A DNA stretch of 64,000 nucleotides, from the NCBI GenBank assembly GCA_045627925.1, contig JAZQOS010000021.1, positions 10,012-74,011 of the forward strand. The letters run 5' to 3'. The stretch's first letter is position 1, and every line of letters starts with the position of its first letter. Of this stretch, positions 22,253 through 46,107 are shown piece after piece. The notes below the pieces were generated by a model. The model was given only the letters and a program-made list of their open reading frames with translations. It had not been told where the DNA came from and did no database searches. A program made the translations under genes and the position numbers. This DNA comes from Kiritimatiellia bacterium. GTDB lineage: Bacteria; Verrucomicrobiota; Kiritimatiellia; RFP12; UBA1067.

Positions 22253-25200
22253 TTACTTGACGATGATTCTCGGGGCGAGGCGCGCCGGACTACGAAGAGT
22301 AAGCGCACCGCCTTCACCGATCTTCAAGCTGCAACCCTTCGGCAAGTTGATAGGCTCAAAGCGCGCCAGGTCATCCTCGGTAAAGGTCTTGCCGGTAATG
22401 AGCACGATCGAATTGCCGCGTTCAAGTTCCACGCCGCTCAAATCAATCTTAATCGTACCGGTTTTGGGGAAGATAAAGTCCGCATCATGGCCCAACGTCA
22501 ACGTTTCGCCCGAAACCGCCTTGATAATCGCGCCTTCCGCAAGCGAAATCTTCGCCGTAATAGAGCCCTTCGCCAAAAGCGCACCGCCCGCCTCGACCGT
22601 AAGCGGCGCGACGCGCGAAGCCGTGCCACCATAATTACCGCTTGTCGAGCTACCACGTACGGACGCAACATTCACGAATTCATTGCCGTCTGTCGAAACC
22701 TCCACATCCCAGTCAACGGGCAACCCACCCCAATTCGTATCCGCCGAAGTGAATCTATAGTCCGTGAACATATCAATTGGATTGTTCTTGAAGTCAATCG
22801 TAACATACAGCTTACGATTTGCCATGTCTGCGACAGACATAGAAAGCGAACTCCCTTGATCAATCCCAAGCGAAACTTCTATCCAACTTGGATCGCCGGA
22901 TGATAACCAATCGGAAATCCCTATGGATCCACCTTGCGTTGTCCCCGACGAGCTAGTAATCGACGCCCTGGCAAAGACACTATTTAGATTCTCCCCATTC
23001 CGCGAGAAACGAAGACGCGAGAGATGAACTTTATTCCCACTTGAAGTCTTGAGGAAGTAGATTCTAACATACCGAATCTTAGAACTATCGGCGAGCGAAG
23101 TTGCGCTGAAGGTCGCGCCGCTTTCGATTGTAATCCCGGGCACACTCACCACCCCCACATCGAAATTACCGCGCCCAATGGCGAACTTCAATGTCGAAAC
23201 CGTCGCCAGCGCCGGCAAGGTCGTAACCGGAGACCCGGAATCGTTCGCATAGACGATGGTACCGCCGCCGCCGATCTTCGAGTAGTCGAGATTGGTCGTC
23301 CATCCGTCATTATCTACGGAGATTTCCAACCGCCCGCCCGCCTGAATCTCCACGGACTTGTTCCTGAGCGCCCATCCGCTCGCCGTCGGCACGGTCACAA
23401 TCGTCGCGCCACCTTCGCAAACGAGCTTCGCCACCGTCACGCTCGCATTCGCGGGAATCGTCATCGATCCGCTCGCCAGTCGAATGGTCGCTTCGGAGTT
23501 ACAGGCGAGAATCGCGCTGTCCACCGTCTTGCCCGCGCCCGGGTCGATGACGACCGTGCCGTTGCCCTCGATGGTTCCGCCCCACGGCTCGGAAAGAACG
23601 GCGGTATTGCCGCTTTCCACGGTCAGTATGCCCGTGCCGCTCTTCATAAGTCGCGTATAAGTACCGGCGATAACGTGCGCCTTGCCGCAAGCGAGTTCGT
23701 AAACCACGCTACCGGGGAAGCCGGAGAAGTCGAGCGTCTGCGCGTCGATGGTATGTTCGCCGTCGCTCACGAAGGTGATGTCGCTGCCGCTTAGCACCTT
23801 GCTGTCGTCCGCCATCAATCTATCGCAGACAACGTCGGCGTCCACGGTAAGAATCGTGTTCTCGCTCGGATCGAGCTTGACGTCGACGGCCGCCTCCAAC
23901 CGCTTTTCGCTCCACTTGCCGTCAAACGCGACCAGCTCGCCGTCCTGCGTGTACTTCCATTCGGCGGTATCCCAATTCACCTCTCCGCCAAACGCCAGCA
24001 CATACGGTCCGCCCATGTTGTCGCCGGAAACGACCGCAATTTTCCCTCCCTCAAGATATCGAAGTGAGGCAAAAGCGTCCAACGGTTTAAAACGATAGAG
24101 ATCGGCAAAGGTGAAGTCGGACTTGACGATTATCGTTTGCGGCTCGTCCCCGAGCGTAAGCGCGCTCGTGTCGAGCGCAATCGGGTTTTCGGGGAAGTTC
24201 ACCTCCGTCTTCTCCAAGCAGTTCATCGCCTTGCCCTCGACCGCCTTGATGATGGCGCCGTCGTCGAGGGTGATCGCCGCCTCGATTGCTCCCTCGGCCA
24301 AGAGCGTACCGCCCGAGCGAACCCCAAGCGCGGATACAGGAACCTTGGCGAGCGAGGCGCCAAAATTCTGGTTGTTGTTGTTAATCCACCCGCCGCCTGC
24401 CGCCGTATTGGGCGCTTGGCCGCTTACCGTCGAAACCGTGGTCCAGACGGAGCCATCGTAGGAAACTTGCACTTCCCAACTCCTCGGTGTCCACCAGTTG
24501 GCAAGGGTATCGCCTGCCTTGCGACAAGAAGCATAAATGCCGTAACGGTCGAACATATCGCTCGGCGTATTAAGTTCAATGGTAATGTAAACCTTGCGCG
24601 CAGCCATATCCTCCGGCGTGGCCGAAAGCATACAACAGGTATCGTAAAGACCTCTTGACGCGTTGGTGTTGGCAGCTCCGTTAAACAACATACCTACATT
24701 GCCATTGCGATATCCGACGGAAGCGGAAGAGCTCTTGATGTTTCCGCGAATAACTTCCGAACCATTGGCGGAGAAGCGAATTTCCTCCATGCTGACGCCA
24801 TAGTATCCGGCTCCATCGCGACTGCCCGCCTTGCCGGAGTCGCTTTGCTCGAGGAAATAGAAGCGGATAAAACGAATCTTGTCGAAGCGATTGGCAAGCG
24901 AACTCGTGCCGAAAGTCGCGCCGTCGTAAACCCGCACCTCGCTCGTGTTGAGCGCGAGCGCCGCGTTGTCGTCGTTGATTTCCAGTTTGCCGCCCATGAC
25001 ATGCGTCGCACCCGGCACGTGTACGGGGAGCTTGAAGTCGAGGAATCCTCCCGAATTCAAGCTATTGAGGACGAGCGACGCCGCATCATCGGCCTTGGTG
25101 AAAGTATAGGTCGATTCCGTGTTCGCAAACGAACCGAACATCACCGTCCGCATACCCGAAACGGCAATGCCGAGATTTTCGCCCTTCTCGGGGAAATAAA

Positions 25201-28200
25201 CGCCCAGACCGTCGGTAAACGCCCTCGTCGTTTCTCCCTGCTTCCAGTTCTGCGCCTCCGTTGACCAAACCGCGCCATCCGCGCCATTCCAAGTAAGCAC
25301 CTTCGCGGTATCGAAGAAGGAGCCGTCCTCGCCGGCGACGCCGCTGACCGGCGTATCGAGATTGCCGACGTAGAAGCTCGCACCGTTGTCGATCAATTTC
25401 GCACCGACGAGCGGAGTGATCTGGTAAGTGCCGGTCGCATTCTTCGGGAGGATCACCTTGGTGCCGGCGTCAAACACAAGCTTCTTGACATTCGGAAGCG
25501 GCAGCGCGGCGAATTCCACCGTAATCTCGGGCCCGATTTCCACCTCGCCCGCGAGAGCGTTCGCGTTCTTGACGAGCACCTTGCCCGAACCGGTGAAAAC
25601 GAGCTTGCCCTGATCGCGATCGACGAGCGTGGCGTCAATCGTCAAGACCGAATCGGCGGCGAGATCGACCGTTGTCGTACCCTTAAGCGCGATTGCGCCC
25701 TGATTGATCGTCGAGAGCTTGGAATTCCCCGAAACCGAAAGCGCCAGCTCCGATGTCGCCGAAGTGCCAAAGCTAAAAGTCTGCGTCCGCTCGACGCGCA
25801 ATTCGCCGTTATTGAGCGCCAGTGGCAATTCAAGCGCCTCGAAACTCTTCTCCTCGCTCAGACCGATGTTGGGATTGATGCCGATTTCAAGCCGCCCGTT
25901 TTCAATCGTGCCGAAGGTTTCGGCGGTTGCATCCTTGAAGGCGTTGAAAGTTTCGAGCCGAAGATCCATATCGACTACCGAAAACGGCAGAAATCGCGCA
26001 AGCGCGCCCGCGGTATTGCTTCTAAGAACATTGCCAGTGAGGTGGCCGCCTTGCGGAACCTCGAAAGCGAGATTGTCGAAGTCGAGCCACGCCCCCGCCT
26101 TGTCCGAATAAAAATCGAGAATCGCGTTCGAGCCCGCCATCGTCACCGTTCCGACGTTCGTCATCTTCGCGATGTAGAACTTCTGGTCGCCCTCGAAGCG
26201 AACATTGCCCTTTTCTTCGGTGAACTCAAGTCCGTTGTGGCCGACGCCGCCGCCCGTGGCAAACGTCACATTTCCACGATTAACCAGAATGTCGGTCGTG
26301 AAGCGCGCCACTCCCTCGCCCGTCAACTTGAAGGTCGCGCCAACGGGCTGCTCGACGACGAGCTTCAGCGCCGCGATTTTGTTCGCGCCGACGTTCATCG
26401 TAAGATCACCGGTCGGTGCAATCGACGCGGTGTTCGCATGGTCGTAAACGCAAGGGAAGCCATTGGTTGTCCACAAGGAGTCGGTGAGATTCCAGTTCGC
26501 CTCGCCCGTGGTCGCTCCCACCCAAACGTAGTCCTCGAGCGCATAGGGCTCGGGCAATGGATCGCCGTAGGCCATCGGACACGCCCAGCACCAGCGACCG
26601 GTTCCCCAGTTCCGATGATTCGTATAATTCTGCAACATGTAGAGCCACGCGTCGCCCGGTCCGCGCTGCGCCCCGTACGGCTCGCCCCAACTCGTTTCGC
26701 CCAAATATCCGCGCATATAGAGCATCTCCAAGCCAATGCAAAGTCCGTCGCCGCCGGGCAAGCCGCTCATGGCGCTTCCGCCCCAAGTCGTACGCGTGTT
26801 GCCGACGGTGAAGACCGCGCCGCCATTCGGGTTTTCAATGAGCGAATCGCAGTTACACGCCTTGATGTAGCCGCTCGCGTTGGAGTTTCCGGTCCAATCC
26901 GGACATCCGGTAAGGCAAGGCCCGATGGCGATGAACGCACGCATGAGCGCGGACATGTTCTGCGAGCTCTCGTTCATAAAGCTATGATTCGCCATACCCG
27001 CTTGCGAACCGTGACCATCGGCGAAAACAAGTTCCCAATCCTGACTGTGCAACGAATTGATCGCCGACTCGTGATTGGCGAATTTACCCGACCAAGTCGT
27101 ATCGGTCACCATCTCGTTATGCGTAATTGGCGAGTACTTTCCCATCAGCTCGCGCATAATGAGCGAAGTCGGATACTCCGAGTCCGTCCAAGTCGGACCG
27201 TGAGCGGTGTCGTAGAGGTTCATCGCGCCGGTGTAAAACTCCATTTCGTTGCGAAAAACCAGATTGTGGGAAAGCGCCGGATAACCGCCGACTTTTTCCG
27301 CGACGCCGACGAACTTGCGTCGCCCGTCGAAAGTCGGAGTGTCGACTCGACGAACCTTGGCGAGATAGTTCTCGACCGTCTTCGCGTAAGTTAGCGTATA
27401 AACGTCGCTTCGCCAATCACAATCGCACTTGATCGGAATTCGCGTCACGACCACATCCGGCATAAGGTCGATCCAACCGTCCGGCTCGTTGGCGTAGATT
27501 CCGTCGCCTTCGGAGTTCTGTTCGGTATTGCTACCGGCATCCCACGGATACTTCGAGCCCTCGGGTATGTCACAACAGGCGTAGAAGACATCGGAAGGAA
27601 CCGGCGAATCCGACGAACCGAAGTGCGTATCGCTCCTGGGGATCGTATAAATGCCCGGCAGCGCGTTATCGGGCCCGGCGACGTATTGTTTCTCGGGAGT
27701 GGTGATGGTAATATTCTTGCGCGAAGTCGTCGGCTTACCGTTCGCCGGACAGCCGTGCGCGTCGTAAAACGCACCCGCGAGCACGAAGTAGTGCGTACCC
27801 TTCTTCGCTTCCCGACTGATGTAGGCGTGAAGCCGCTCCGCGTCGTTACGCGCGTAATACCCTAAAGTCGAATCGGTCGTGTTGACGGGAAAGTCGGCGA
27901 GAATATCCTTGAAGTTGACGCAGGCGAAAACCATTTCCGGGTGATCGGCTGCGCGCGCGGCGACGTAATCCTCCCAAATCGAGATGTACATGTTCGGCGC
28001 GATGAGGATGTAATCCGGCTGATTCGGGTCGTCCTTTACGTAATCCACGTGCTCGCTTTCGGCTACCGCCATCGTCTGCATCGGCACGAGAAAATTCGCC
28101 TTGACGGTAAACCGCTTCGCCGCCTCGACCTTGCCGTTCGCGTAACGGAACGGCGTTACCTTTACTTGCAACACCTTCACGCCTGCACGAGATTGGACGG

Positions 28201-28597
28201 CGAGCGGAGTGATGTTGGCGCGCGGCCACGCTTCGGCGTAAAGCGCTTCGTCGGGCGGCGTGAACGGCGGATTGACAGTCGTCGTCAAATGCGGCTCCTG
28301 CACCGGCTCAATCTTCACCCCCTCGCCAATCGTCGCCCATTCGGCTTCGAACTCGCAACCAAGCAACTTGCCGCCCTTCGGCACGGTAAAGGTAACGAAC
28401 GTTTCCGGCAAGTTGGGCGCGCCAATCGGCTCCACCGCCGAATCGAGCCCCGGATAGACAATCGCCGAATAGCCGGCGTATTTGCTCTCGACGATTTGCG
28501 CTTGCGAGAAATCTCCGGGAAGCGTAATGGCGAGCGTATCGCCAAAGGCAAACGCGCTAACGCCCAAGACCAGTGTTGCGAATAAGAGCCGTTTCAT
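22253..28597 (-). CDS. Giant secreted peptidase C25 (gingipain)-like protein with beta-strand-repeat region and two discoidin-like modules (2114 aa)
   Basis: Signal peptide MKRLLFATLVLGVSAFAFG and an N-terminal propeptide-like beta-sandwich. C25-like core (YILIAPNMY...HYFVLAGAFYDAHG...DVFYACCD...VVVTRIP) with ADGHGS His and GPCLTG Cys. Long G/T/N/V-rich repeat region follows. Two modules start IRFIRFYFLE / IRYVRIYFLK. The protein ends LAPRIIVK. Confidence 0.85.
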   Translation of the reverse strand: MKRLLFATLVLGVSAFAFGDTLAITLPGDFSQAQIVESKYAGYSAIVYPGLDSAVEPIGAPNLPETFVTFTVPKGGKLLGCEFEAEWATIGEGVKIEPVQEPHLTTTVNPPFTPPDEALYAEAWPRANITPLAVQSRAGVKVLQVKVTPFRYANGKVEAAKRFTVKANFLVPMQTMAVAESEHVDYVKDDPNQPDYILIAPNMYISIWEDYVAARAADHPEMVFACVNFKDILADFPVNTTDSTLGYYARNDAERLHAYISREAKKGTHYFVLAGAFYDAHGCPANGKPTTSRKNITITTPEKQYVAGPDNALPGIYTIPRSDTHFGSSDSPVPSDVFYACCDIPEGSKYPWDAGSNTEQNSEGDGIYANEPDGWIDLMPDVVVTRIPIKCDCDWRSDVYTLTYAKTVENYLAKVRRVDTPTFDGRRKFVGVAEKVGGYPALSHNLVFRNEMEFYTGAMNLYDTAHGPTWTDSEYPTSLIMRELMGKYSPITHNEMVTDTTWSGKFANHESAINSLHSQDWELVFADGHGSQAGMANHSFMNESSQNMSALMRAFIAIGPCLTGCPDWTGNSNASGYIKACNCDSLIENPNGGAVFTVGNTRTTWGGSAMSGLPGGDGLCIGLEMLYMRGYLGETSWGEPYGAQRGPGDAWLYMLQNYTNHRNWGTGRWCWACPMAYGDPLPEPYALEDYVWVGATTGEANWNLTDSLWTTNGFPCVYDHANTASIAPTGDLTMNVGANKIAALKLVVEQPVGATFKLTGEGVARFTTDILVNRGNVTFATGGGVGHNGLEFTEEKGNVRFEGDQKFYIAKMTNVGTVTMAGSNAILDFYSDKAGAWLDFDNLAFEVPQGGHLTGNVLRSNTAGALARFLPFSVVDMDLRLETFNAFKDATAETFGTIENGRLEIGINPNIGLSEEKSFEALELPLALNNGELRVERTQTFSFGTSATSELALSVSGNSKLSTINQGAIALKGTTTVDLAADSVLTIDATLVDRDQGKLVFTGSGKVLVKNANALAGEVEIGPEITVEFAALPLPNVKKLVFDAGTKVILPKNATGTYQITPLVGAKLIDNGASFYVGNLDTPVSGVAGEDGSFFDTAKVLTWNGADGAVWSTEAQNWKQGETTRAFTDGLGVYFPEKGENLGIAVSGMRTVMFGSFANTESTYTFTKADDAASLVLNSLNSGGFLDFKLPVHVPGATHVMGGKLEINDDNAALALNTSEVRVYDGATFGTSSLANRFDKIRFIRFYFLEQSDSGKAGSRDGAGYYGVSMEEIRFSANGSEVIRGNIKSSSASVGYRNGNVGMLFNGAANTNASRGLYDTCCMLSATPEDMAARKVYITIELNTPSDMFDRYGIYASCRKAGDTLANWWTPRSWEVQVSYDGSVWTTVSTVSGQAPNTAAGGGWINNNNQNFGASLAKVPVSALGVRSGGTLLAEGAIEAAITLDDGAIIKAVEGKAMNCLEKTEVNFPENPIALDTSALTLGDEPQTIIVKSDFTFADLYRFKPLDAFASLRYLEGGKIAVVSGDNMGGPYVLAFGGEVNWDTAEWKYTQDGELVAFDGKWSEKRLEAAVDVKLDPSENTILTVDADVVCDRLMADDSKVLSGSDITFVSDGEHTIDAQTLDFSGFPGSVVYELACGKAHVIAGTYTRLMKSGTGILTVESGNTAVLSEPWGGTIEGNGTVVIDPGAGKTVDSAILACNSEATIRLASGSMTIPANASVTVAKLVCEGGATIVTVPTASGWALRNKSVEIQAGGRLEISVDNDGWTTNLDYSKIGGGGTIVYANDSGSPVTTLPALATVSTLKFAIGRGNFDVGVVSVPGITIESGATFSATSLADSSKIRYVRIYFLKTSSGNKVHLSRLRFSRNGENLNSVFARASITSSSGTTQGGSIGISDWLSSGDPSWIEVSLGIDQGSSLSMSVADMANRKLYVTIDFKNNPIDMFTDYRFTSADTNWGGLPVDWDVEVSTDGNEFVNVASVRGSSTSGNYGGTASRVAPLTVEAGGALLAKGSITAKISLAEGAIIKAVSGETLTLGHDADFIFPKTGTIKIDLSGVELERGNSIVLITGKTFTEDDLARFEPINLPKGCSLKIGEGGALTLRSPARLAPRIIVK

Positions 28598-28609: not shown

Positions 28610-28644
28610 TTACTTGACGATGATTCTCGGGGCGAGGTGCGCCG
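28610..28644 (-). pseudogene. Orphan remnant of a paralogue 3' end (encodes ...HLAPRIIVK-stop)
   Basis: 34 of 35 nt are identical to 22253-22287, the last codons plus stop of the 2114-aa gene. It lies in the 77-nt spacer between the 1248-aa gene stop and the 2114-aa gene start. No ORF body is attached. Confidence 0.7.
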
Positions 28645-28674
28645 TGTCAAGTAAGCGCACCTCACAAGCGCGTC

Positions 28675-31600
28675 TTACCTTACGGTAATCATTGGTGCAC
28701 GGTTAAAGCGAACAAGCTGAAGTTCACCATTCTCGCTCAAAACCAACCGTCTACTTCGTCCAACGACCTCAAACTTTGCTAGATCGTCTTGGGTAAAGAC
28801 AACGCCCTTGATTACCTCAATTGGCGCGCGATTTTCAGAATCCAAACCATTTGCATCAATCTTTACCTTACCGGTATCGGGAAGCGTAACTTTCGAGCCG
28901 CTTGCAAGAGTCAGCGACTTACCATCCGTCGCCTTCAAAATCGAATCGGCCGCCAAAGTGATATTAGCCGTAGCATTTCCTTGCGCAACCAATGTTCCTT
29001 CCTCCGCAACCAAAACTTCCGCCTTGGAAAATGCAAGGCCAAAAGCAGTCGAACTATTACCATACCACATCTCGCCAGTGCCAGCAGCTGGAACCGCTCT
29101 GCCCGAGACCCTGCTTACCGTCACCCAATTGACTCCATCTGGGCTCACATCAACCCTAAAATCGGTTAAGCTTTCGGTGTTGTGCGGAGAAGTGGCCGCG
29201 GATGCCGCAAGGCCATAACTCGTCGGCATTGGTTGAGGTTCGCTAAACACATACTCAAGATAGAACTGCTCCTTGGACAAAATATCGCTATCGTTCGCCG
29301 TAATGGTACAATGACTATCCGAACCGGTAAATGAACCGCTAAGTCCACTCGCATCACCATCGCGCAAATATCCCTCATTCGAAACAGACCCCAAGCTCGA
29401 AGGATATGAGACTTTGAGATTGGCGCTGGCACCTTTGGGCAATAGCGATCCGGCGGAAGTATTGAATCGCAATTCCAAAATTGAAACAATGTTACCATCG
29501 CTATTCGTCCTGATTGGATAGAAGCGAACTCCTTTAATCGTCTCGATCTTGTTAATAATTTCGTCGGCCGCAAAAACCGCACCATTCTGGATATCAAGTC
29601 GTGGAACGCTCACCGAATTAAGCGCAACATCGCCTCCCGACACCATCATTCCGTTTGGCGCGTTCACCTCGTTCTCAAATATAACATCCTCGGAAAGTGC
29701 CGCGCTGCCGATAGTAAGCGGCTCGCCGGTAAAGCGATAAACCGAGTGCTGATTGCCAAACGCCACAAAAGCGCACGAAAGCGCATTAGGCAAATTAACC
29801 GTAACTTCCTCTGCGTTCTCAATATCCGGGAAATAATACTTGCCGTTCCCGCTTTGAGTATCCGTCCAATCGCCCGACGCCTGATTCCAAACGATAAACT
29901 TCGAAATATCAAAGAACGCGCCGGATGTCGCCCGTCCTTCAACTGGCGTATCACCGCCTAATTCAAAAACTTGCGCTCCCTCTTCAAGATCAAGGACCGC
30001 CCCGCTCATTGAAAGAATATTGTAAAACCCTTCGGCGCTTGGCGGAATCACTAACTTCGAATTACCGTCAATCGTAAGTTTCGTAACATTGCGAAGCGGT
30101 ATTTCGTTTAAGATTAGCGTTCCCGAATTAACCGTAACTTCCCCGGCAATGCTAATATCCGTTTCAACCGACGTGCTTCCGCCCTCGATGACAATTTTAC
30201 CTTCCGTCGTTTCGTCGGCAACCATTGACGCATTGAAAACAAGGTTTGCCTCGTTTTCCAAGGTAAACGTCGTCGTGCCAAAAAGCGTCGCCTTGCCACC
30301 ATTCACCGTTTCCACCGACGAGTCACCGCTCACGCCAACTTCAAGCCCGGAACCATCGGGACGGCCAAAGCCGGCCGTCGTTGTCCGATCAACATAAAGC
30401 GTACCATTGTCGAGCGCAATCGAACCCGAAAAGTATTCCCAGCAATTGGCAAGTCCGTAATTGGGGTTAAAGGTAATTCCGAGCCCGCCGTTCTCAACCG
30501 TCGCAAAACCGCTCTCGAGGTTGGCGTCCTTAAACGCATTGACCGTTCCCAGCGCAACGCAAGTATTCTCAACTGCAAGAGGCAAAAAGTCCTTGAGCTG
30601 CCCTTCCGTGCGTCCACGCAGAATATTGCCTTCGCACATAGTATTTCCTTCGCCAACCAGAGTTAGCGTCGAGAACTTCGGCGCTGCGGTGTCGAAGTCT
30701 AGTGTCGTGCCATTACCCGCAAGCGCGACTTCGCTTGCACCCGTCGGCTGAATCATATAGGCCTTAGTTGGCGAAGCGACGGTAAGAACGCCACTCCCGC
30801 CGGCGAAATTGACGCCCTCCCCGCCAACGCCGCCGTTCGCCGCGAAGCGAAGCGTCGAGCCATCCGTTACATTAAGCTTGGTCATTACCTTAAAGATGTT
30901 GTCGCCGGTAATTGACGTCCCGCCCTTCACGTTAAGCGTCGTATAACCCGTGTCTTCATCGACCGCAATCTCCGTCTCGTTCAAGGTCGTCTCGGGAATG
31001 GCGATTGATATCTTCATTAGCGGATCGCCATAAAGAATCTGCTCGACCATGCAAAAGCGAGCAGTTGTTCCGGTATTGCCGCAATACCTCTGACGCGCAT
31101 CCAACCAAGCCGATCCGATATCCATATCCTTTTCAAAAACCCCTTGCTTCATATAGTACTGGAGCGAGCTCGAAAGGCCGTCGTCATCAATCGACACATT
31201 ATTCGTACCGAAGCCATAACGCGAATTGTGAACGCTGGCGACCGTGCCGCCGTTTAGCGACTCGATTTCGGCTTCGGCAAGCGTCATGCCCCCGCCGTCA
31301 ATATGTCCCGTCATGCATGAAAAACCCGAAAACACAATCTTCGTTATACCACTTGCCTTAAGGTAGTTGTTTACATTGATGTACTTGCAGTAAAGATCCG
31401 CAGCCGAGCCGTGGTCACGATATTCAACTGCTTCACGATCATGGGCAAAATAATGAGCGGCCGCTTCTTCGATAGTGGCATGGTCCGCTCCCCACCCGTA
31501 AACAAAAAGCGGATTGCCCTCGAGAATCGGACGGCGTGGCGCAATCATATTCTTTACCGTATTACGCGGCAGCTCTTCCGCATCAATCCACTTGCCGCCA

Positions 31601-32431: not shown

Positions 32432-32638
32432 CTATCGTTGCGGCTTTGGCAATCCTGCTCCGCTGAAAATAGCCTGTAATGTGCCTTGCTTCAACGGCGC
32501 ATTTCCATGATGAGGAACTGGAATGCTTCGATTCAACGCGAGATTCTTCCAAATGTAATGACTACCTCGAATTCGGTGCAAGACATAGCCGTTGGCCGAT
32601 AGCAGACGCTCAACCTCCTGCGCTGTCAGCGGTTTCAT
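32432..32638 (-). CDS. hicA: HicA-family mRNA interferase toxin
   Basis: 68 aa, MKPLTAQEVERLLSANGYVLHRIRGSHYIWKNLALNRSIPVPHHGNAPLKQGTLQAIFSGAGL. This is the HicA pattern (G-S-H ... VP.H ... L..GTL..I). ATGA overlap with hicB. Confidence 0.85.
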   Translation of the reverse strand: MKPLTAQEVERLLSANGYVLHRIRGSHYIWKNLALNRSIPVPHHGNAPLKQGTLQAIFSGAGLPKPQR

Positions 32639-32871
32639 GCATGCACCAATTCGTCACCAACGGATTTTTTCTCGGAAAGCCGTTCGATTGCCATTGAAAT
32701 ATATGCCTCAAGGCATCCTTGAGCGGCTTCGATGACATTTGCGCGACATTCTTCGACCGTCTCACCTTCCGAGGCACAACCGGGCATAGCGGGTATTTCA
32801 CCCCAATACCCACCTTCTTCGGCCCTATGAATGGCTATGCGCCAATCTTCTCTCGCAAAGAAATCTCCCAT
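32635..32871 (-). CDS. hicB: HicB-family antitoxin (UPF0150 fold, short form)
   Basis: 78 aa, ...IAIHRAEEGGYWGEIPAMPGCASEGETVEECRANVIEAAQGCLE. This is the characteristic HicB N-terminal domain. It sits directly upstream of and overlapping hicA. Confidence 0.8.
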   Translation of the reverse strand: MGDFFAREDWRIAIHRAEEGGYWGEIPAMPGCASEGETVEECRANVIEAAQGCLEAYISMAIERLSEKKSVGDELVHA

Positions 32872-32892: not shown

Positions 32893-32922
32893 ATTATAAC
32901 ACTTTTAGTTGATAATGGTCAA
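32893..32922 (-). promoter_or_regulatory. Sigma70-type promoter for hicBA (TTGACC-N18-TGtTATAAT)
   Basis: The reverse strand reads TTGACCattatcaactaaaagTGtTATAATgcactcgaaagggcgataccaATG. The -35 is at 32922-32917 and the -10 at 32898-32893 with an extended -10 TG. Confidence 0.55.
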
Positions 32923-38900: not shown

Positions 38901-39502
38901 ACGGAGCCCTTCACCTGATCGACAAGATCCTTGGCGTAGCCGTTCCCCTTGGATGTGGAAAGCGACATCATCTGCTCAGGAACGAGGAACGTCGCCTTAA
39001 TCGTGAAGCTTTTGGCCGCTTCGAGCTTACCGTTCGTATAGCGGAACGGGATGAAGCGCACTGGCAAAATTTCCACTCCCGACGCGATCTGCACGCCCAA
39101 CGACTCGACTTGTTTCTTGGGCGAAACGGTTCCGTAAAGCGCATCGTTCGGCGGCGTGAACGGCGGATTTTTGACCATCTTCGAAACTGGCTCTTGAATC
39201 GGTATGAGCCGCACGTCCTCGCCAATCGTCACCCACTCGGCCTCGAATTCGCAATCGAGCAGCTTACCGTTCTTCGGTACTGCGAAGGTAACGGAATCGT
39301 CCGGTAGCATCGGCGCGCCGACTTCATCGACTGGATAGTCCACGCCAGGATATTGGATAAGCGAATATCCCGGCTTATTGCTTTCGACGATCTGGGCCTT
39401 GGTGTAGTCGTCGGGCAAAGTGTAAGAGACTGTCTTAACTTCACCGAAAGCGAATTGAACGATACCAAGCGCGACAAGCGCGATTGCGAATTGTTTCTTC
39501 AT
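32969..39502 (-). CDS. Giant secreted peptidase C25-like protein with beta-strand-repeat region and two discoidin-like modules (2177 aa)
   Basis: Closest paralogue of the 2114-aa protein, roughly half or more of residues identical by eye in the N-terminal 300 aa. Signal peptide, propeptide-like domain, VDSHGS His, GRPCLTG Cys. Modules ISYIRIYFLA and YKYLRMKFLN. Ends FAPRIIVK. AAGGAG RBS. Confidence 0.85.
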   Translation of the reverse strand: MKKQFAIALVALGIVQFAFGEVKTVSYTLPDDYTKAQIVESNKPGYSLIQYPGVDYPVDEVGAPMLPDDSVTFAVPKNGKLLDCEFEAEWVTIGEDVRLIPIQEPVSKMVKNPPFTPPNDALYGTVSPKKQVESLGVQIASGVEILPVRFIPFRYTNGKLEAAKSFTIKATFLVPEQMMSLSTSKGNGYAKDLVDQVKGSVVNPEEIKEEKAPQKMSLFSLTDDPNPDFDAIKDAAGDSEQPDYIVIAPNKYYSLWVKYVEARKAAHPEMKFRCDNFNTILAAFPVNTDDSTKGYYARNDAERLHAYIRQEAAKGTHYFVLAGAFYDAHGYPEGGVVRTTKRDITITAPDVWYTIGPETGIPGIYTIPSSQKSFNLGQAPIPTDAFYACCDLKGAKYPWDAGSENGAITEGDGIYANEHSDIIDLIPDVVVTRIAFKLANNDDPSASGRTYEQTFNNYLAKVQRVEQANFPGRRRYAVAAGALGSNSPDMTSGSTHRFDIEYYTGGYNMYDIRHPSKWVDTEYTMTWLMRDRMVRGLPSAEVGIASETNWKVGLTEFDQGANYLRDHDWDLITVDSHGSQSGLSSKVFYGKVSQTMKGLIRSFIAGRPCLTGYPDYREETHHYAKACHCDMLLENPTGGAVFAVGSAREGWYSNATANIDDGDNYNSKLDNLSIKAYFINHLSPGDSWLYMMRNFQNQLGSWGARRWSWVCPIAYGDPLPFNYALEDYTWAGETTGEVNWNLTDSLWTTNGVLCVYDHANTAIVEATGNLTMNVGTNELAALALDVTQPSDAAFKLTGDESGRLRLGTDLKLNAGTFVAAVEGGVGHEGLQFTEAKGNVRFEGNKKFYLGKVKNVDTVTFAGSNGLLDFRKGKATTNDPSDNNEEWIDVDHLVFEGSGVDVNTHNVLRGTLEGALAKYLPLSIENFELQLETFNAFKNATAEKLMTVKNGRVIVHTNPNYGKSRAQTFEAFVLPVELDNGEIRVDRTHDFSFGSETSPGLELSVKGNSKLSRSNNASLGLYGVTKVMLDDEANLEINVEIVDFGNGGFEFSGNGKVKIVGMNSLAGEVTVRAGTTVEFANLPLAKVTKLTLEEGAKVILPKSDNNTYQITPLIGAQLDNQGAVFYNGALENPIVGTTTVTGSFFDPDTILTWNGPNGGDWSATEQNWLKGGTASAFTGNIGTYFPDNGNCTINVVGDQNSLVGSFANANSAYVFNPNDATSKLNFQGLSIGGDVTFNLPVSSSGALHVMGGKTEVNTDAKSPAMNTREIHIYDGAEYGASSTGFIIDKISYIRIYFLAQRNSANVPHEGVKIDEISFSNVDANGNITSRLLSNNVKSVSSSVSTSNLGRLYDGSYNASSSTGGNDGYSVYFYGSAAVMAGEGLYVTFELREPRPVFDRFGVFSSKTYNAETGSSWDGYRPTSFRVDVSADGINWTTVARTSNSNSGFWYGGWVGGDEKSGEAALRAGSSGEQPASVEVREGGTLLAEGKIRANIEAASGSILKAVNGKSLECAENTVWSFGEEPVIVDVSDLTLTSTPQPIVSGGNLDFYSLYNFKPNNENASLRYRDGVISVVKGDGLVAPYLRTFAGTENEKWDTDDWRVIDYDENGEIKYDENSEVVTKPFGGKWSEKSLDENVDIALDMSADAVVTVDADVICDTLRATDLKYVGGYKLKLVDDGTHTINAKTLDFSDFTGEVDYGLNCGDAHVIAGTMTRLSGNGRGVLTVDTMNTVILSAPWDGTIEGNGTIVLDPGEGNSWDDMRIFALNRNLTVELMSGTMTIPEGTSIAVNRISCGSGAKIVTTPTSESWVLSNKTLEIREGGELIFNINSADWGTNVSFNKISGSGSIVYENKTGSALTTLGRKIPGTMTVVMRDGVYNLTSSSELEVALNAARIVVSEGAEFSADSVGNTDGQYKYLRMKFLNSGKTLKIAEIGVRRNNQFQSLKNSTVTCNVSGSSNLGYLVDNPNTDFFNEMWNGAAATIPGNATITIELKSPLSMFSNYSMGIGPQANCPTSWDMEVSEDGVNYVLVSSVRNTTASGQWNWMGGGNSGAFRASKPADLTIAAGGALLAKGNLETIVKFEDGAIIKPTAGETMTLVGNSNLILPESGTVTIDVRGAVSAGVGETVDLISGKKFTEDDLKKFTVLADKTGYRLVLGEDGSLKLTRTHFAPRIIVK

Positions 39503-39543: not shown

Positions 39544-39572
39544 ATTATACGCTTTATTCCACCCAAAGTCAA
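39544..39572 (-). promoter_or_regulatory. Sigma70-type promoter for the 2177-aa gene (TTGACT-N17-TATAAT)
   Basis: The reverse strand reads aaTTGACTttgggtggaataaagcgTATAATtcaagg..., followed by a ~40-nt leader containing the hairpin GTGCCataGGCAC and the RBS AAGGAG. Confidence 0.55.
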
Positions 39573-40040: not shown

Positions 40041-40056
40041 CTACCCTTAGACCTTT

Positions 40057-40587: not shown

Positions 40588-40674
40588 TTTCAAGCTTCCT
40601 TTTTGCAGACATAGACAAATCTACACTTCGCCAATTCTATGACCTATACGCTCCCCTCGCGAGGAACAGAAAGT

Positions 40675-40683: not shown

Positions 40684-40755
40684 AAAATTATTACACCGCG
40701 CGAATGCCAACAATTCGACTCCCAACCGCTTGCAAACGTCCGCCCGAGCGGTCGG

Positions 40756-41073: not shown

Positions 41074-44000
41074 TTACTTGAATATAACCTTCGTCTTCTT
41101 GGCCGGGCCGCGCCAGTTGAGGTAGTTGTTGCTTATATCCGCCGGCATTACCATGCGCTCCGCAGTATTGCCGTCTGGATCCACGGCGACCAATTTCACC
41201 GCCTTGCGCTTCAACGTTCCCGTCACCGGGCAGATGGCCGATTTAGGAATGTGAAGATCGTTTACCGAGAAGCGAATTTCGCCCGCCTCGCCGACGTCGT
41301 AGCGCATTGTCGCATCAAACTTGACCTTCGCGCTCTCCATAAGATTCACCATTCCCGCGACTCGCCCGCTTAACGGAGACGTCGATCCATTCGCCATCGT
41401 AAGCTCCGCATTCGGTCCGAGGATAACGAGCCCTTCATTCACCAGCGTTCCCGTCCAACGACCGTTAAGTTCAAGTACGCCGGTTCGATCCACCGTAAAG
41501 GTATGGTTCCACGATGCCGCCCACTCCGGCCAAGTCGTCGTACCGCTGAAAATGGGCTGGCCCGTCGGACATTGCCCCGTATAGATAAGCCGTGCATTGA
41601 CCGAAGAGTTTCCTTTAAGAAGGTATTCGTGGAAGGTTCCCATGCCCGTCGAAGAAAACCGCAAGTATTCGCCAATTCCCGACCACTCCGTCGTTTTCGT
41701 CTGGGTGATCTCGTAAACCACTTTCGCCCAACTCGCATTGTCGCCCGGTTCGATACCGATTTGCGCGGTACCTTCGAGATTCTTGAAGCGATAGGTGTAA
41801 GTCGGCGCTTCATACGACGAGCCGCTGCCATGGAACGGATAGAGAAGTTCCACATACGCCGCAAACGAAAGCGACTGCGACCAGGTGTTGTTCGGCGGGA
41901 AGATGCGATACTTGGTGCCGTTGTCGGACGCGAAGACGAGCTTGCCGTCGCCTTTGAGCCCGCCCCAATTCGACGCATTCCAGAAATTCAGGTTCCGCGA
42001 GAAGACGACGGCGAATTCCGAGCCGTCGTTGATCGTAATGCCCTGCGCAATATTCTTGGCGGGCGATGCGACTTCGGCAAGCGGATACTCCGTCCGCGCA
42101 CCCGTATCGAGGGTAACGGAGCCCGTTCCCGAAACCGCGTCAAGTCGCGGCAGAATATCGCCGACAACCACGAGTTTAACTCCATCTACGACGAGCGTCG
42201 AAGGCAACACGAAGTTCGATTCCGCAACCGCCTTAACGGTCAAGGTGCCAGATCCTTCAATCGTCAACTTCACCTTCGGCGCGGCATTAAGGGCAATCGT
42301 CGCATTGCCCGAGACCGTGAGCTTCGCCTCCTCGACCGAGTTCCAGTCCGGGATTGTCACGGACTCGTTCGCGATGTTCTTCCAATTGAGCGCGGCGAAA
42401 GAGGCCGTTCCGCCCGTTATTGCTGCGGAAAGTCCTCCCAAAGGACGCGAGCAAATCAGATGCGCGGCTTCGTCATAATAGATTTCCACCGCCGTATCGA
42501 CCGCTCCGCTCTCATTCACGGCAACGAATTCGAAGCCGCTCATCGGCGCATCATCCATGTGGAAAAGTTCATTCTTGTTCGCCTTAAGCAATGTATTGCG
42601 CAAATAAACAACGCCCTGCGACAAAGAACTGAAGCCCAGCGAACAATCAAGCGGATCTTCAATAGTGAGCACATCGCCCGCATGCATCACCATAGTCGCG
42701 TTCTTAACCGTCCTTATGGTCATGTTTGACGACGCGTGGATCGTCCCCACAACCTCCAAATCCCTAAGCGCGACTTCGCCCGTCAAGGCCGTAAAGTCAA
42801 CGTCAACAACCTCCAACGCGCCAACCTCATTCCCTTCCAGTACGAGATTGCCTTCACCCGTGAAAGCGACCAACTTAAGCGCAATCGGCGTATCGACCGA
42901 AAGCGTGGTGTCGCCCGCGATGGTCACGTTTGCGGACGCAGTCATATCGAGATCGGACTCGGACCACTTTTCCGTAAAGCCGTCCCAATCCGCCGTATCC
43001 CAAGCGGCGGTCGAGGTGGAGATCGTCCGTGTGTAAGGCCCTTTCCGGAGCCCGGTGGGCGCGGCCAGTTGCAAAGAGCCGTCTTCGCCGATGCGCAGGA
43101 CAACCTCCTTATCGAGCACCGTGAAGTCCGCGAGTTCCGCCGCCGTCCACCGATGGGCGTCGCCTCCAATAATCGTCATTGGCTCGTCCGAGAGGAATCT
43201 CTTGATTTCGGATGCGTCGATAAAGACCTCGCCCTCCCATGTGAGCGTTGTGCCCAGATGCCATGTCATCGAGACTGGGCATTCCTCCCAATCGTCAATG
43301 GCCGCTTTGAGAACCGCGCCGTCGCGCAGGACGATATTCGCCTCTGGCTCGCCCTCAAGACGGAACTTGCCGCCACGTTCGACGACCACATCCGGGCATG
43401 TCAAAACGTCCGAGCAACCAAAGTCGCCGGTGATGACGAGCTTATTGAGATTAAGCGGCAGCCAGAATTGCGTATCGCCGACAATCGCGAAAGCATCGGA
43501 GGTAATCGACGCCGCCTTGTCTTCCGTATAGCTATTATCGTAAAAGATATATTGCGTTTCGCTGTTGGCGAAAAACGAAGGCCCGAGTTTCAGTCCACCC
43601 AAAACCGGCACCACAAGGGGATTTTCCGGCTGATTCGGGAAGTAGTACTTCGCGCCAGCGGGAATCTCCTCGGCACTGAGTTCGTATATGTCCGGCAAAA
43701 GCGTAATGACTTCCGGATCGGCCAACTTGACATTATCCCCCAGCTCAATCGCACCCGCGATGGTGGAGCGGGAGAAATCGACCTTGGCGGGATTTGCCGC
43801 CGTCGCTTGGGGCGAGCGGAAGACCAGCTTGCCGCTGCCCGAATCCTTAAACTCCGCAACCATCGTAAAGGTCGTACCGGGGTCAAGCGTAATGGTCGTC
43901 GTTCCCTTGAGTCCGAAAACACCGCCGTCCGCCGACTCAAAGCGATTGCCGTCGCCGGTCGAGGTGATGACGAGCGAATCCAAAACGGCTTCGTTGGTGT

Positions 44001-46107
44001 ACCTGACCTTGAGCTTGGAACCATTCGCCAAGGTCATCGCGCCGGAAAGCGTCTGCCCATAACCCGAAAGCCCCCAATAGGGATTCTGCCCGACAATCAA
44101 ATCCGCATCATCAAGCGTAAGGCAAAGCGGCTCGGTAGCGCCATCGAACGGCTCCCACGTCTGCAGCTCCAGCGCCGTCGATTTAAGCGCGAGATTCGGA
44201 TAGTTCTTAAGCGCGCCTTTTTTCGCGCGGCTGCGGAGAATGTTCGGCGCACCCGAGCGGTTCGAGCCAATGAACGAAAGGGATTCGACATTCTGAAGAT
44301 TGTCCGCTTCGACAACCGCGCCTTCGCCCGTAAGCGCAAGTTCCTTCGCGTTCTTAAGCCCGCCCAAATAAAAGTAGGCGGGAGTGTTTAGGGTAAGAAT
44401 ATTCTTTTCGTTCGCTTCCGCGAACTCGATTCCCTTGCCGACGCCGCCCGGCGCGTTGAGAGTAAGCGCATACCCCGCAGGCGCGGCAAGCGTATTCATC
44501 ACGCGAAATTCGTGCTCGCTCGTGAGCGTGAAGTCGCCTTTCGCCGTCAATGTCGCCGACATCATCGCGACTGCTTGCGGAACCGCCAAACGCGCGGTCG
44601 AAATCGTCGCGTCCTTGACGACCTGCAAAGCGTTCCAAGTTTCGTCCGCAATCGTGACATCTTCCTCGTCCAGAATCCTGACGAGCGGATCGCCGTGGAA
44701 GATGGCGACGGCGTAGTTGCGCTGAACCATCCACGACGCATGGGCGAAGTGTTTGTTGTGCTGATCCAAGATTGCGTTCAACCACGCTTCGCCCGCGGTT
44801 TCATGGTTATGGGCGAAGTGTCGGTCAATGGCGGTCTTTAGGCCATTGCTCGCGTTATCCCCATCCACACCATAGCGCGTATTGTTGATGGAAGCCAAAA
44901 AGCCGGCGTTCGGGCTCATCAGCCCCGACGAGCCGAGGCACCAATGGAGATAGGTCTTGCCATTCGCCTTCTCGTAGTAGTCGATCATGCCCGTATCGCA
45001 AGGGACGCAGCCGTTGAGGAATTTAAGTAGTCCCTTGTGCGAAGTGTAAGCGCTCGCGCTGAAATAGGATCCGCCCATCGCCCAGCCATGCGAATAGACC
45101 CACGCATAATCCATATCGGAATTGAAGAAATCGTCCGAAACGCTCGAATAGTCCAAGCCGCGCGCGGTCTTCGCCGAATCGTTAAGCGTTTTGCATTGAA
45201 GAACCGGATGCTTGGCGGCGATATTCTTGAGATCGCGACGGCTCAACGCCTCTTCGTCGCCGTGCGTCTTCGCGGAGCGCGGATCGCCCATATTCGGCGC
45301 AAAGTCGTAGAATTCGAATTCCTGACGATCCATGTCATTGGCGTTGTTGGGCTGAGAACCGTTGACCCAACTGCCTTCCGCGCCGTACTTCGAACGTCCC
45401 GAGAAGTCGTCGGCCTCCGCGCGCTCAAGCTTGTGGAGATAGTTCGTGATCATCTCGTGCTGATTCAGCATCCGCCCGCTTGCGTCCTTGATCTCGGGAC
45501 GCGGAATGAACGAAAGCCGCGCGACCGCTACACTGGGAACTACATCCACCTGCTTTTCGCGGCACTCCTCTTCGTCCATGTACTGTCCGTTCGCATTTGC
45601 ATCCCAAGGATAAGTCCCCTTCTCTTTGAGACAGCCGTAAAACATGTCGGTCGCATAATTGCCGCCGAAGGTAGAGAGGAAGGGACAGAAAATTCCCGGG
45701 ATTGCATTGTCGAGCGTGACTTCCGTATCGTCATTGCGAAAGTAGACCGGATTCATCCCGCGAAAGTTCACCGCATCGTACCACGCGCCACCCAACACCA
45801 CGTACTTCAAATTGGGATGGTTCTTGTAGTATTGGCGAAGATATTTATGAATAGATTCCGCCGCATTGCGGCATTTCGACGTACCCTTCTGCCGATAATC
45901 GTAAGTTGCAATATCGTAGATTTCCGTCTTGGTATTGACGATGGCGAATTCGACTTCGGGATGGTTCTTTGCGCGCTCGCCGATATACCATGAAAGCGAA
46001 TCGTAAAGATCGTTGGGCGCGACCATGAGATAGATCGGCTTGTCGTCGGCCAATACGCTTGCGGCAAGGCCGCAAATCAATCCAATCGTGCAAAATGCTT
46101 TCCGCAT
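41074..46107 (-). CDS. Giant secreted peptidase C25-like protein with long beta-strand-repeat region (about 1677 aa)
   Basis: The track start at 46146 is TTG inside the promoter -35. I use ATG 46107-46105 (MRKAFCTIGLICGLAASVLADD signal peptide). C25-like core (KYVVLGGAWYDAVNF, DMFYGCL, VAVARLS), YSHGW His and GCVPCDTG Cys. No discoidin-like module seen. Ends GPAKKTKVIFK. Confidence 0.85.
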   Translation of the reverse strand: MRKAFCTIGLICGLAASVLADDKPIYLMVAPNDLYDSLSWYIGERAKNHPEVEFAIVNTKTEIYDIATYDYRQKGTSKCRNAAESIHKYLRQYYKNHPNLKYVVLGGAWYDAVNFRGMNPVYFRNDDTEVTLDNAIPGIFCPFLSTFGGNYATDMFYGCLKEKGTYPWDANANGQYMDEEECREKQVDVVPSVAVARLSFIPRPEIKDASGRMLNQHEMITNYLHKLERAEADDFSGRSKYGAEGSWVNGSQPNNANDMDRQEFEFYDFAPNMGDPRSAKTHGDEEALSRRDLKNIAAKHPVLQCKTLNDSAKTARGLDYSSVSDDFFNSDMDYAWVYSHGWAMGGSYFSASAYTSHKGLLKFLNGCVPCDTGMIDYYEKANGKTYLHWCLGSSGLMSPNAGFLASINNTRYGVDGDNASNGLKTAIDRHFAHNHETAGEAWLNAILDQHNKHFAHASWMVQRNYAVAIFHGDPLVRILDEEDVTIADETWNALQVVKDATISTARLAVPQAVAMMSATLTAKGDFTLTSEHEFRVMNTLAAPAGYALTLNAPGGVGKGIEFAEANEKNILTLNTPAYFYLGGLKNAKELALTGEGAVVEADNLQNVESLSFIGSNRSGAPNILRSRAKKGALKNYPNLALKSTALELQTWEPFDGATEPLCLTLDDADLIVGQNPYWGLSGYGQTLSGAMTLANGSKLKVRYTNEAVLDSLVITSTGDGNRFESADGGVFGLKGTTTITLDPGTTFTMVAEFKDSGSGKLVFRSPQATAANPAKVDFSRSTIAGAIELGDNVKLADPEVITLLPDIYELSAEEIPAGAKYYFPNQPENPLVVPVLGGLKLGPSFFANSETQYIFYDNSYTEDKAASITSDAFAIVGDTQFWLPLNLNKLVITGDFGCSDVLTCPDVVVERGGKFRLEGEPEANIVLRDGAVLKAAIDDWEECPVSMTWHLGTTLTWEGEVFIDASEIKRFLSDEPMTIIGGDAHRWTAAELADFTVLDKEVVLRIGEDGSLQLAAPTGLRKGPYTRTISTSTAAWDTADWDGFTEKWSESDLDMTASANVTIAGDTTLSVDTPIALKLVAFTGEGNLVLEGNEVGALEVVDVDFTALTGEVALRDLEVVGTIHASSNMTIRTVKNATMVMHAGDVLTIEDPLDCSLGFSSLSQGVVYLRNTLLKANKNELFHMDDAPMSGFEFVAVNESGAVDTAVEIYYDEAAHLICSRPLGGLSAAITGGTASFAALNWKNIANESVTIPDWNSVEEAKLTVSGNATIALNAAPKVKLTIEGSGTLTVKAVAESNFVLPSTLVVDGVKLVVVGDILPRLDAVSGTGSVTLDTGARTEYPLAEVASPAKNIAQGITINDGSEFAVVFSRNLNFWNASNWGGLKGDGKLVFASDNGTKYRIFPPNNTWSQSLSFAAYVELLYPFHGSGSSYEAPTYTYRFKNLEGTAQIGIEPGDNASWAKVVYEITQTKTTEWSGIGEYLRFSSTGMGTFHEYLLKGNSSVNARLIYTGQCPTGQPIFSGTTTWPEWAASWNHTFTVDRTGVLELNGRWTGTLVNEGLVILGPNAELTMANGSTSPLSGRVAGMVNLMESAKVKFDATMRYDVGEAGEIRFSVNDLHIPKSAICPVTGTLKRKAVKLVAVDPDGNTAERMVMPADISNNYLNWRGPAKKTKVIFK

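Follow-up and report, generated by a model that had tools for sequence, protein, structure and literature searches.

What are the four giant proteins encoded head to tail in one stretch of a Kiritimatiellia genome, and by which route might proteins of this size leave the cell? The stretch (64,000 nucleotides, positions 10,012 to 74,011 of contig JAZQOS010000021.1, assembly GCA_045627925.1; hereafter the window) contains four long open reading frames (ORFs), all on the minus strand and together amounting to about 21.7 kb of coding sequence, which we call genes A (2114 aa), B (1248 aa), C (2177 aa) and D (1677 aa). Window positions are used throughout, and relatives carry labels internal to this analysis, for proteins (P0001 style) and for loci or metagenomic contigs (L001 style). 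A first-pass annotation had read the four genes as an array of secreted, gingipain-like proteins of peptidase family C25, and this reading holds in most respects. Gingipain-family proteases are major virulence and nutrition factors that, to our knowledge, have been studied almost only in Bacteroidota and only as cargo of the type IX secretion system (T9SS), of which C25 peptidases are the classic cargo. We consider it probable that the locus is a hypervariable island coding for four long-diverged paralogues, each a giant exported adhesin with a cysteine protease, working as proposed below. They are members of the C25 family only, and very probably neither T9SS cargo nor autotransporters; what they represent is a new architectural arrangement of a peptidase family already known, from a phylum that has been little studied. 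The C25 assignment itself is not new, as NCBI already labels homologues 'C25 family cysteine peptidase', and since automatic annotation thus recognizes the domain family the finding is only moderately surprising. Real novelty could lie in the C-terminal tag of these proteins, together with the export route that it implies. In the literature, no paper on C25 peptidases or gingipains in Kiritimatiellota was found, and the T9SS is mentioned there only incidentally.

A hypervariable island of divergent paralogues

All genes and protein domains of the array located below lie on the minus strand. Gene A (22253..28597) codes for a signal peptide, a sandwich resembling the gingipain prodomain, a C25 domain, a beta-helix, a module resembling carbohydrate-binding module family 32 (CBM32), a further module for which we use the working name MODX, a second helix unit, a second CBM32-like module, a second MODX and the C-terminal tail APRIIVK, as deduced from the ORF, Pfam, a domain map made with local hidden Markov models (HMM), and a structure model compared by Foldseek. 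Gene C (32969..39502) has the A-type architecture, with a linker after the prodomain that is about 45 aa longer and the tail APRIIVK; its map relies on identity to A, on the local HMMs and on a sub-threshold F5_F8_type_C match. Gene B (28675..32421) codes for a signal peptide, a C25 domain not preceded by a prodomain, a beta-helix, a CBM32-like module, MODX and the tail APMITVR (ORF, Pfam, a model of residues 470-1248, and Foldseek). In gene D (41074..46107), the signal peptide, C25 domain, beta-helix and MODX are followed by about 650 aa with no assigned domain and by the tail KTKVIFK (Pfam, the start of relative P0043, and the local HMM map). The ORF of D is open up to a TTG at 46146 (41074-46146), and the ATG at 46107, which gives 1677 aa, is the most likely start because P0043, which is 84% identical, begins at the same methionine and because the sequence from there reads as a signal peptide. 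All four proteins start with what reads, in the sequence, as a classical signal peptide (basic n-region, hydrophobic core and small-x-small cleavage site), and no lipobox is visible in any of them.

The ORF map and BLASTP comparisons bear out the claim of four same-strand giant paralogous genes: the full-length identity between A and C is 45%, and B and D share 26-30% with the other paralogues, so that by sequence comparison the four are divergent paralogues. Each of them has closer relatives in other genomes (56-60% identity for B, 84% for D) than inside the array (26-45%), and the array is therefore an assembly of old, distinct subtypes. A recent tandem duplication was considered and ruled out, each paralogue being nearer to proteins of other genomes than to its array mates.

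The island is bounded by a rubrerythrin gene (46224-46769, minus strand), upstream of D, and by a gene for an exported 1039-aa tetratricopeptide repeat (TPR) protein with a BamD/YfiO-like segment (19072-22191, minus strand), directly downstream of A and syntenic in L006. Its G+C content is 0.48-0.58, against 0.60-0.62 in the flanks. DNA of L006 is 96.9% identical to window positions 16612-22633, which hold the TPR gene, its neighbors and the last ~127 codons of gene A. Beyond that stretch, the L006 positional allele of A is only 47% identical in protein, while its last ~115 residues are 91-94% identical, and the switch in identity is sharp and falls at the last MODX. On the other side of the island, the rubrerythrin gene of L010 is 89% identical at the nucleotide level, but the adjoining gene is a C-type paralogue and not D. 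Arrays beside rubrerythrin recur in L015 and L016. Gene bodies are exchanged between strains, the last ~115 residues and the flanks being conserved, and this pattern fits selection for antigenic or substrate diversity. The earlier suggestion of a diversifying family is strongly supported by these observations, that is, by a 47%-identical allele between flanks 97% identical in nucleotides, and by paralogues of old, distinct subtypes.

Protease head, predicted stalk and lectin-like modules

The Pfam profile Peptidase_C25 (PF01364) matches three of the four proteins above its cut-off of 23 bits: A with 49.2 bits (5.9e-13), B with 71.8 bits (8.4e-20; profile positions 1-373 of 374 are covered) and D with 59.0 bits (6.5e-16). 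C gives no direct match to this profile and is collinear with A, so a C25-collinear domain in each gene, as had been claimed, is found. The domain lies at 26528..28039 in A (residues 187-690; Pfam, an alignment of 26 sequences with relatives, and Foldseek), at 30988..32370 in B (residues 18-478; Pfam and an alignment of the four paralogues), at 37319..38803 in C (residues 234-728; the same four-paralogue alignment and a local HMM) and at 44665..46047 in D (Pfam and the four-paralogue alignment). Every recurring sequence block quoted in the first-pass annotation was found in the alignment of the four C25 domains, in which His-Gly and Cys-x-Thr-Gly are invariant. Likewise H529, G530 and C561 (A numbering) are invariant in the 26-sequence alignment; His529 is encoded at 27011-27013 and Cys561 at 26915-26917, and the residues of B are His337 and Cys369. 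In the model of A, strands 521-527 and 551-557 precede the His and the Cys, and the invariant His-Gly...Cys is a putative catalytic dyad, positioned in sequence and model as expected for C25.

The model of A residues 1-720 was built from the 26-sequence alignment and reached a mean predicted local distance difference test score (pLDDT) of 72.9, with good cores and poor loops. Compared by Foldseek with the PDB, it matched PorU (6za2) at 2e-5 over 522 aligned columns and then the separase and CHAT proteases of clan CD, that is, the caspase-like alpha/beta fold of C25, as far as a model of moderate confidence can tell; no mature gingipain chain appeared among the top 50 matches. Both a significant C25 match and a caspase-like fold were found, and from sequence and model together the four proteins belong to peptidase family C25 (clan CD), with predicted peptidase activity. 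That these proteins might instead be adhesins on a catalytically dead C25 scaffold is very unlikely: the stalk and lectin modules do make up most of each protein and C does fail the Pfam model, but His-Gly, Cys-x-Thr-Gly and the other blocks have stayed invariant in the four paralogues and 26 relatives despite an overall identity of 26-30%, and the prodomain, a latency device, has been retained.

The match to PorU, the C25-type sortase of the T9SS, raises another possibility, namely that the C25 domains are PorU-like sortases or C-terminal signal peptidases, which would cleave, and perhaps transfer, the tails of other cargo. We regard this as improbable. PorU 6za2 is the only solved catalytic domain that Foldseek matched at high probability, with no mature gingipain in the top 50, and it belongs to the same Pfam family and gives the best solved match to the prodomain-like and catalytic domains together; however, PorU alone among PDB chains joins two such domains, and it is hence favored in a search with the whole model. 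The faint match of homologue P0003 to the NCBIfam T9SS_sortase model (E 0.0055) scores 14 bits against a cut-off of 420. Several kinds of tail-bearing cargo do occur in the same lineage, as this explanation would have it, but C10 (streptopain-type) peptidases bearing this tail are encoded in the arrays as well, suggesting a set of degradative enzymes, and several hypervariable, lectin-bearing paralogues of 1200-2200 aa per genome are unlike a housekeeping processing enzyme. PorU itself is a single-copy, housekeeping protein of about 1100 aa that has neither beta-helix nor lectin modules, whereas the proteins described here fall far below the cut-off of the NCBIfam PorU model, in loci where no T9SS context was seen.

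The two largest proteins had been said to carry an N-terminal beta-sandwich resembling the C25 propeptide, and this resemblance stands, by fold in A and by homology in C. The sandwich of A (28073..28540, residues ~20-175) matched the Kgp prodomain (5mun) at 8.9e-7 and the RgpB prodomain (4ief) at 6e-6 to 1.3e-5 in the Foldseek comparison with the PDB, with a probability of 1.00 and a template modeling (TM) score of about 0.5-0.6 on the target; that of C (38948..39454, residues 17-185) was located with a local HMM and by homology to A. The Pfam profile of the gingipain propeptide (PF08126, Propeptide_C25) did not match A or C at E<=0.01 and passes its cut-off in a paralogue from locus L011. Given the fold match to Kgp and RgpB, the sandwich of A and C is taken as a gingipain-type prodomain; the local HMM domain map gives none for B and D.

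Residues 470-1248 of B, which follow the protease, were modeled from 33 sequences with a mean pLDDT of 89.5. The model is all-beta, and its stalk has pLDDT values mostly above 90. The best Foldseek matches of this stalk (29590..30984, residues 480-944, delimited by model and Foldseek) are right-handed beta-helices, namely Ag43, EspC, EspP, Hbp, tapirin, PL6 lyases and phage tailspikes, at E-values of 6e-3 or worse and low TM scores for a multi-domain model; the equivalent regions are at 24929-26500 in A, ~35690-37270 in C and ~43432-44649 in D. The region after the protease is thus predicted from the model to be a right-handed beta-helix. The earlier note had likened it to autotransporter-associated beta-strand repeats (PATR), and in this case only the likeness of fold, seen in the model and by Foldseek, holds: the PATR models (PF12951, TIGR02601) matched none of the four whole proteins at E<=0.01 and none of the stalk segments at E<=10, so that the resemblance is one of fold and not of membership. 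Nor did the stalk segments give a credible match at E<=10 to autochaperone or other passenger models. PATR does occur elsewhere, in proteins bearing the tail with or without MODX (P0054, P0082, L027).

After the stalk comes a lectin-like module of about 170 aa, with two copies in A, two in C, one in B and none in D. The copy in B is at 29047..29589 (alignments and PDB profile matches), those in A at 24368-24928 and 22613-23122, and those in C at 35126-35689 and 33344-33808. Pfam F5_F8_type_C (PF00754) stays below its threshold in these proteins (24.9 against a cut-off of 28.2 in C; 18 against 27.8 in A), and it is carried by homologue P0025. Searched against the PDB, a profile of 17 module sequences gave 43 matches, all of them CBM32/F5-8-type-C domains, the best at 7.7e-7 (the glycoside hydrolase family 92, GH92, structure 7nsn) and others including the CBM32 of an alginate lyase, the CBM32 of Clostridium perfringens NagJ and NagH, and neuropilin b1/b2. 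The relation to the CBM32 or F5-8 type C modules of mucin- and glycan-acting glycoside hydrolases is accordingly made by this profile, whose sole PDB matches they are, whereas the Pfam scores of the window proteins remain below cut-off and the matches cover chiefly the C-terminal half of the domain. With this, the discoidin-like modules reported in three of the four genes could be placed in A, B and C.

MODX is an all-beta module of about 115 aa that comes after each lectin module. It is both terminal and internal in A (22256..22609 together with the tail, by alignment, and 23999-24331) and in C (32972-33325 and 34748-35083), terminal in B (28678-29022) and internal in D (43027-43392). It is also rare, as a profile search among 1.84 billion representative proteins gave 55 clusters at E<=1e-3, most of them giant proteins, as long as 4842 aa, with the prodomain-C25-stalk layout.

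These parts suggest the following way of working. The proteins would first cross the inner membrane in a Sec-dependent manner by means of the classical signal peptide. The C25 domain would be the catalytic head, preceded in A and C by the prodomain, to which it is joined by a disordered linker, and A and C would probably be made as latent zymogens and activated by prodomain removal, as gingipains are. The predicted beta-helix, 400-500 residues long, would serve as a rigid stalk comparable to those of the passengers of Ag43 and of the serine protease autotransporters of Enterobacteriaceae (SPATE). One or two CBM32/discoidin-like modules would bind glycans and so target the protease to glycoproteins such as mucins, which fits the neighboring genes for a GH95 fucosidase and a GH89 enzyme and the gut or rumen origin of several of the related metagenome-assembled genomes (MAGs). 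Finally, the C-terminal tail would serve some other machinery as a tag, by which the protein is either secreted across the outer membrane or kept at it. Surface display and zymogen latency are both inferred from this arrangement.

Judged by analogy, such proteins would be likest the gingipain-adhesin complexes in chemistry and latency, and the SPATE autotransporters in geometry. With the gingipains RgpA, RgpB and Kgp of Porphyromonas gingivalis (MEROPS C25, PF01364 and PF08126) they have in common a Sec signal peptide, an N-terminal sandwich prodomain of about 180 aa, a clan CD His/Cys domain, non-catalytic adhesin or lectin modules after the catalytic domain, and several paralogues per genome. 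In contrast, they are distant in sequence, come from a host of the Planctomycetes-Verrucomicrobia-Chlamydiae (PVC) group, and have neither a T9SS C-terminal domain (CTD) nor haemagglutinin/cleaved-adhesin domains; in place of these there are a 400-500-aa beta-helix, CBM32-like modules, MODX and a 7-residue tail, and B and D lack the prodomain. With SPATE/AIDA-type autotransporters (EspP, Hbp, EspC, Ag43) they would share a long right-handed beta-helix with an enzyme or adhesion head at its N-terminal end, the protease being held out on a rigid stalk, if the model is correct. The SPATE protease, however, is a serine enzyme and the one described here a cysteine enzyme, and C-terminal barrel translocator, autochaperone and PATR matches are replaced here by MODX and a short tail. 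A gingipain-type catalytic head and prodomain combined, in uncultured gut bacteria of the PVC group, with lectin modules and a stalk predicted to be a beta-helix extend the reach of the family, and a strain-variable island beside genes of host-glycan degradation points to a so far unstudied class of gut proteases acting on host glycoproteins, possibly mucin or immunoglobulin.

The C-terminal tail and the route of export

The four proteins end in the heptapeptides APRIIVK (A, 22256-22276), APMITVR (B, 28678..28698), APRIIVK (C, 32972-32992) and KTKVIFK (D, 41077-41097). Over 57 tails the consensus is [A/P]-P-[Q/K/R]-[V/I]-[L/Q/I]-[F/V]-[R/K]-COOH or, in a shorter form, [A/P]-P-x-[V/I]-x-[F/V]-[K/R]-COOH; all 57 close with Lys or Arg, and 38 have Pro at position -6. 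The tail contains a run of 3-4 hydrophobic residues and no membrane-spanning segment. Thirty-three of 37 homologues carry the tail, and of the other four three are visibly fragments and one (P0033) has no tail. Within the family it follows three different domains, namely MODX, a truncated second stalk (in a 1580-aa subtype) and the unrelated end of D. It also occurs on other cargo: in locus L015, three adjacent genes coding for C10+C25, C25 and C10-only peptidases end in P-x(-x)-VLFR, two of them without MODX or stalk, so that the tail comes there directly after C10 and C10+C25 domains; it is found on a sulfatase-PATR-MODX protein (P0054) and, in metagenomic contigs, on a BspA-type leucine-rich repeat (LRR) protein and a legume-lectin/PATR protein beside family members. 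In the high-confidence model of B, the last 5 residues are disordered (pLDDT below 50).

None of the catalogued export signals was found at this end. NCBIfam as a whole yielded no match in any of the four proteins or in their last 150 residues. The T9SS CTD (Por_Secre_tail, TIGR04183/PF18962, and type B) gave no Pfam or NCBIfam match in the four proteins, including their last 150 residues at E<=10, in agreement with the earlier statement that a T9SS CTD is lacking; neither did PEP-CTERM, LPXTG or other catalogued sorting signals give an NCBIfam match in the last 150 residues at the same threshold. With the LPXTG/sortase and PEP-CTERM/exosortase signals the tail has in common a Pro-containing motif, hydrophobic residues, a basic end and varied secreted cargo within one lineage, but its hydrophobic stretch is too short to span a membrane. 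A C-terminal autotransporter beta-barrel was not matched by Pfam or by passenger and barrel scans, and the modeled end of B consists of lectin module, MODX and free tail. The gene content had been judged not to look Bacteroidota-like, and the host is indeed a PVC-group bacterium; the related loci were found in MAGs of Kiritimatiellia, 'Verrucomicrobia' or Lentisphaerota, including Candidatus Spyradenecus, several of which derive from gut or rumen. No T9SS gene was seen in the window or in about 400 kb of related loci, the whole genome lying outside this scope.

These negative results bear on the explanation nearest at hand, that the proteins are T9SS cargo with a strongly diverged CTD, MODX and tail acting in its place. 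C25 peptidases are indeed classic T9SS cargo, T9SS CTDs likewise finish with a short strand of hydrophobic residues and a basic residue at the very end, and MODX is an all-beta module of about 115 aa at the C-terminus of A, B and C. Nevertheless, no Por_Secre_tail or other CTD match appeared even at E<=10, MODX also occurs internally with hundreds of residues after it, the tail is found without MODX and after other domains, and the roughly 400 kb of related loci (not a whole genome) showed no T9SS gene. In addition, the host belongs to the PVC group, whereas the T9SS is described as confined to Bacteroidota (PMC10515386). Altogether, we can give hardly any credence to this explanation.

A route other than the T9SS or an autotransporter, using a tail that is common to otherwise unrelated secreted cargo, is plausible from the sequences, and the tail may be inferred to act as a recognition tag for passage across, or retention at, the outer membrane. 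We tentatively put forward, as a possibility that we hold to be somewhat short of even, that the heptapeptide (in looser terms, 3-4 hydrophobic residues and a terminal Lys or Arg) is an undescribed C-terminal sorting or anchoring tag of a Kiritimatiellia/Lentisphaerota route distinct from T9SS, type V secretion, sortase and exosortase, with giant surface enzymes (C25 and C10 peptidases, sulfatases, lectin or LRR adhesins) as cargo. Either a dedicated receptor or a processing enzyme of C25 type could recognize the invariably basic last residue. A conserved tail common to other secreted enzymes would also be a testable handle on the export and display of very large proteins in a poorly known phylum.

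On the other hand, the proteins may be soluble enzymes that leave the cell by a general route (type II secretion or vesicles), in which case the tail would have no sorting role and would be a conserved structural end or a stability element. Its mere seven residues, which contain no membrane-spanning segment, the related P-Y-x strand after internal MODX copies and the lack of a dedicated transporter gene beside the arrays would all agree with this. A structural end is harder to reconcile with the same tail at three different domain boundaries within the family and on unrelated cargo without MODX, with its lack of structure in a high-confidence model, and with Lys or Arg as the last residue in every tail and the frequent Pro at -6, and we hold this alternative to be unlikely.

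Several points weigh against the tag and the wider proposal of exported protease adhesins. First, a related G/A-P-Y-x strand follows the internal MODX copies, so the tails of A, B and C might in part simply be where this module ends. Second, two cytoplasmic proteins match the loose tail pattern by chance; outside the family, only about three signal-peptide proteins carry the tail, compared with these two chance matches. A crude test of association between signal peptide and tail gave an odds ratio of 10.7 (p = 6e-7), on which we do not rely as the association is biased by the choice of loci through their C25 genes. Third, no candidate receptor or transporter is consistently adjacent to the arrays across related loci. 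In addition, the catalytic domain model is only moderately confident, and the family profiles of 4 and 26 sequences reached no gingipain or PorU among PDB sequences; the relation to C25 is therefore distant, the link being made only by the Pfam profile and the comparison of folds. Besides, the E-values of the beta-helix matches are weak, as is to be expected for a multi-domain query.

Other C-terminal ends deserve mention. The exported GH95 fucosidase encoded in the window ends in ...KITPTVIK and the GH89 (NAGLU) enzyme in ...IELILKD; both resemble the tail of the protease family, possibly by chance. On contigs like Candidatus Spyradenecus (L003 3066-9398, L013 3657-9977 and L014 1-5772), a GDSL lipase-domain protein of about 2100 aa precedes the C25 gene, and its end ...FIIKASR is a tail-like run plus three extra residues. 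A second recurrent ending, ...FYR[V/I]RV... or ...QFYR[V/I]ICSP..., was seen on many related giant proteins that do not have the K/R tail (P0046, P0048, P0057, P0060, P0064, P0066, P0067, P0075, P0088, L015 3442-7041 and L016 159-2624), and it may be an alternative C-terminal domain or signal.

Promoter-like sites and neighboring genes

A scan of 18 kb for sigma-70-like consensus sites, scored as matches out of 12, gave its two best sites just upstream of C (39544..39572, TTGACT-17-TATAAT, 11/12) and of hicB, hicA and B (32893..32922, TTGACC-18-TATAAT with an extended TG, 11/12). The site upstream of A (28623..28650, TTGACA-16-GAGAAT) scores 10/12, and that upstream of D (46118..46146, TTGAAC-17-TAGAAT with a TG) is weak, at 9/12, and ends 10 nt before the ATG; all four are on the minus strand, and the total of such sites in the region is not above that of shuffled sequence. 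Near-consensus promoters had been proposed for C and D; the site of C is near consensus, and that of D is not. The toxin-antitoxin pair noticed upstream of one of the genes was confirmed by Pfam as HicB and HicA: hicB (32635..32871, minus strand; HicB_lk_antitox/UPF0150) is inserted between C and B, and the stop codon of hicA (32432..32638, minus strand; HicA_toxin, 1.8e-14) lies 11 nt upstream of the start of B. Read-through into B from the predicted toxin-antitoxin promoter is plausible, judging from this layout.

Toxin-antitoxin or mobile genes (HipA, Fic/DOC, DUF3990) also occur among the paralogues of relatives. Between C and D lies an ORF of 178 aa with a Bro-N domain (40057-40593, minus strand; BRO-N, 8.9e-12) and a low local G+C, which is probably what remains of a gene from a phage or mobile element. 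Between this ORF and the stop of D there is a tandem array (40753-40877) with the palindromic core TCCATGTATGGA, in which a 22-nt unit is repeated about 5 times (a 45-nt unit was scored as well); it might be an array of operators or iterons, or what is left of a mobile element. At the other end of D, a hairpin (46170-46203; 15-bp stem and T-run) stands directly 3' of rubrerythrin and just upstream of D, and it is likely a terminator that insulates D from read-through. The TPR/BamD-like gene was considered as a dedicated partner of the array and dropped, because it adjoins a family member only in the syntenic L006.

Further upstream in the window, the genes for the GH95 fucosidase (55838-58333) and the GH89 enzyme (58343-60907) are both on the minus strand. 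The window also codes for a lipid A acyltransferase and a CotH/LTD protein, and these four genes together indicate a diderm host that degrades host glycans. On the other side of the array, two tandem paralogous ORFs (13860-15203 and 15210-16526, minus strand) code for 447 and 438 aa whose first 40 residues are identical and which have no Pfam match; a third ORF (11948-13444) has a related C-terminus. An ORF at 51282-53345 (minus strand) combines a YidC/60KD_IMP insertase domain with a CDP-glycerol glycerophosphotransferase (TagF-like), an unusual fusion unless two genes have been read as one. In L015 (278-16733), the gene order is rubrerythrin, GH2, a 1199-aa protein with no Pfam match, and then the C10+C25, C25 and C10 peptidases.

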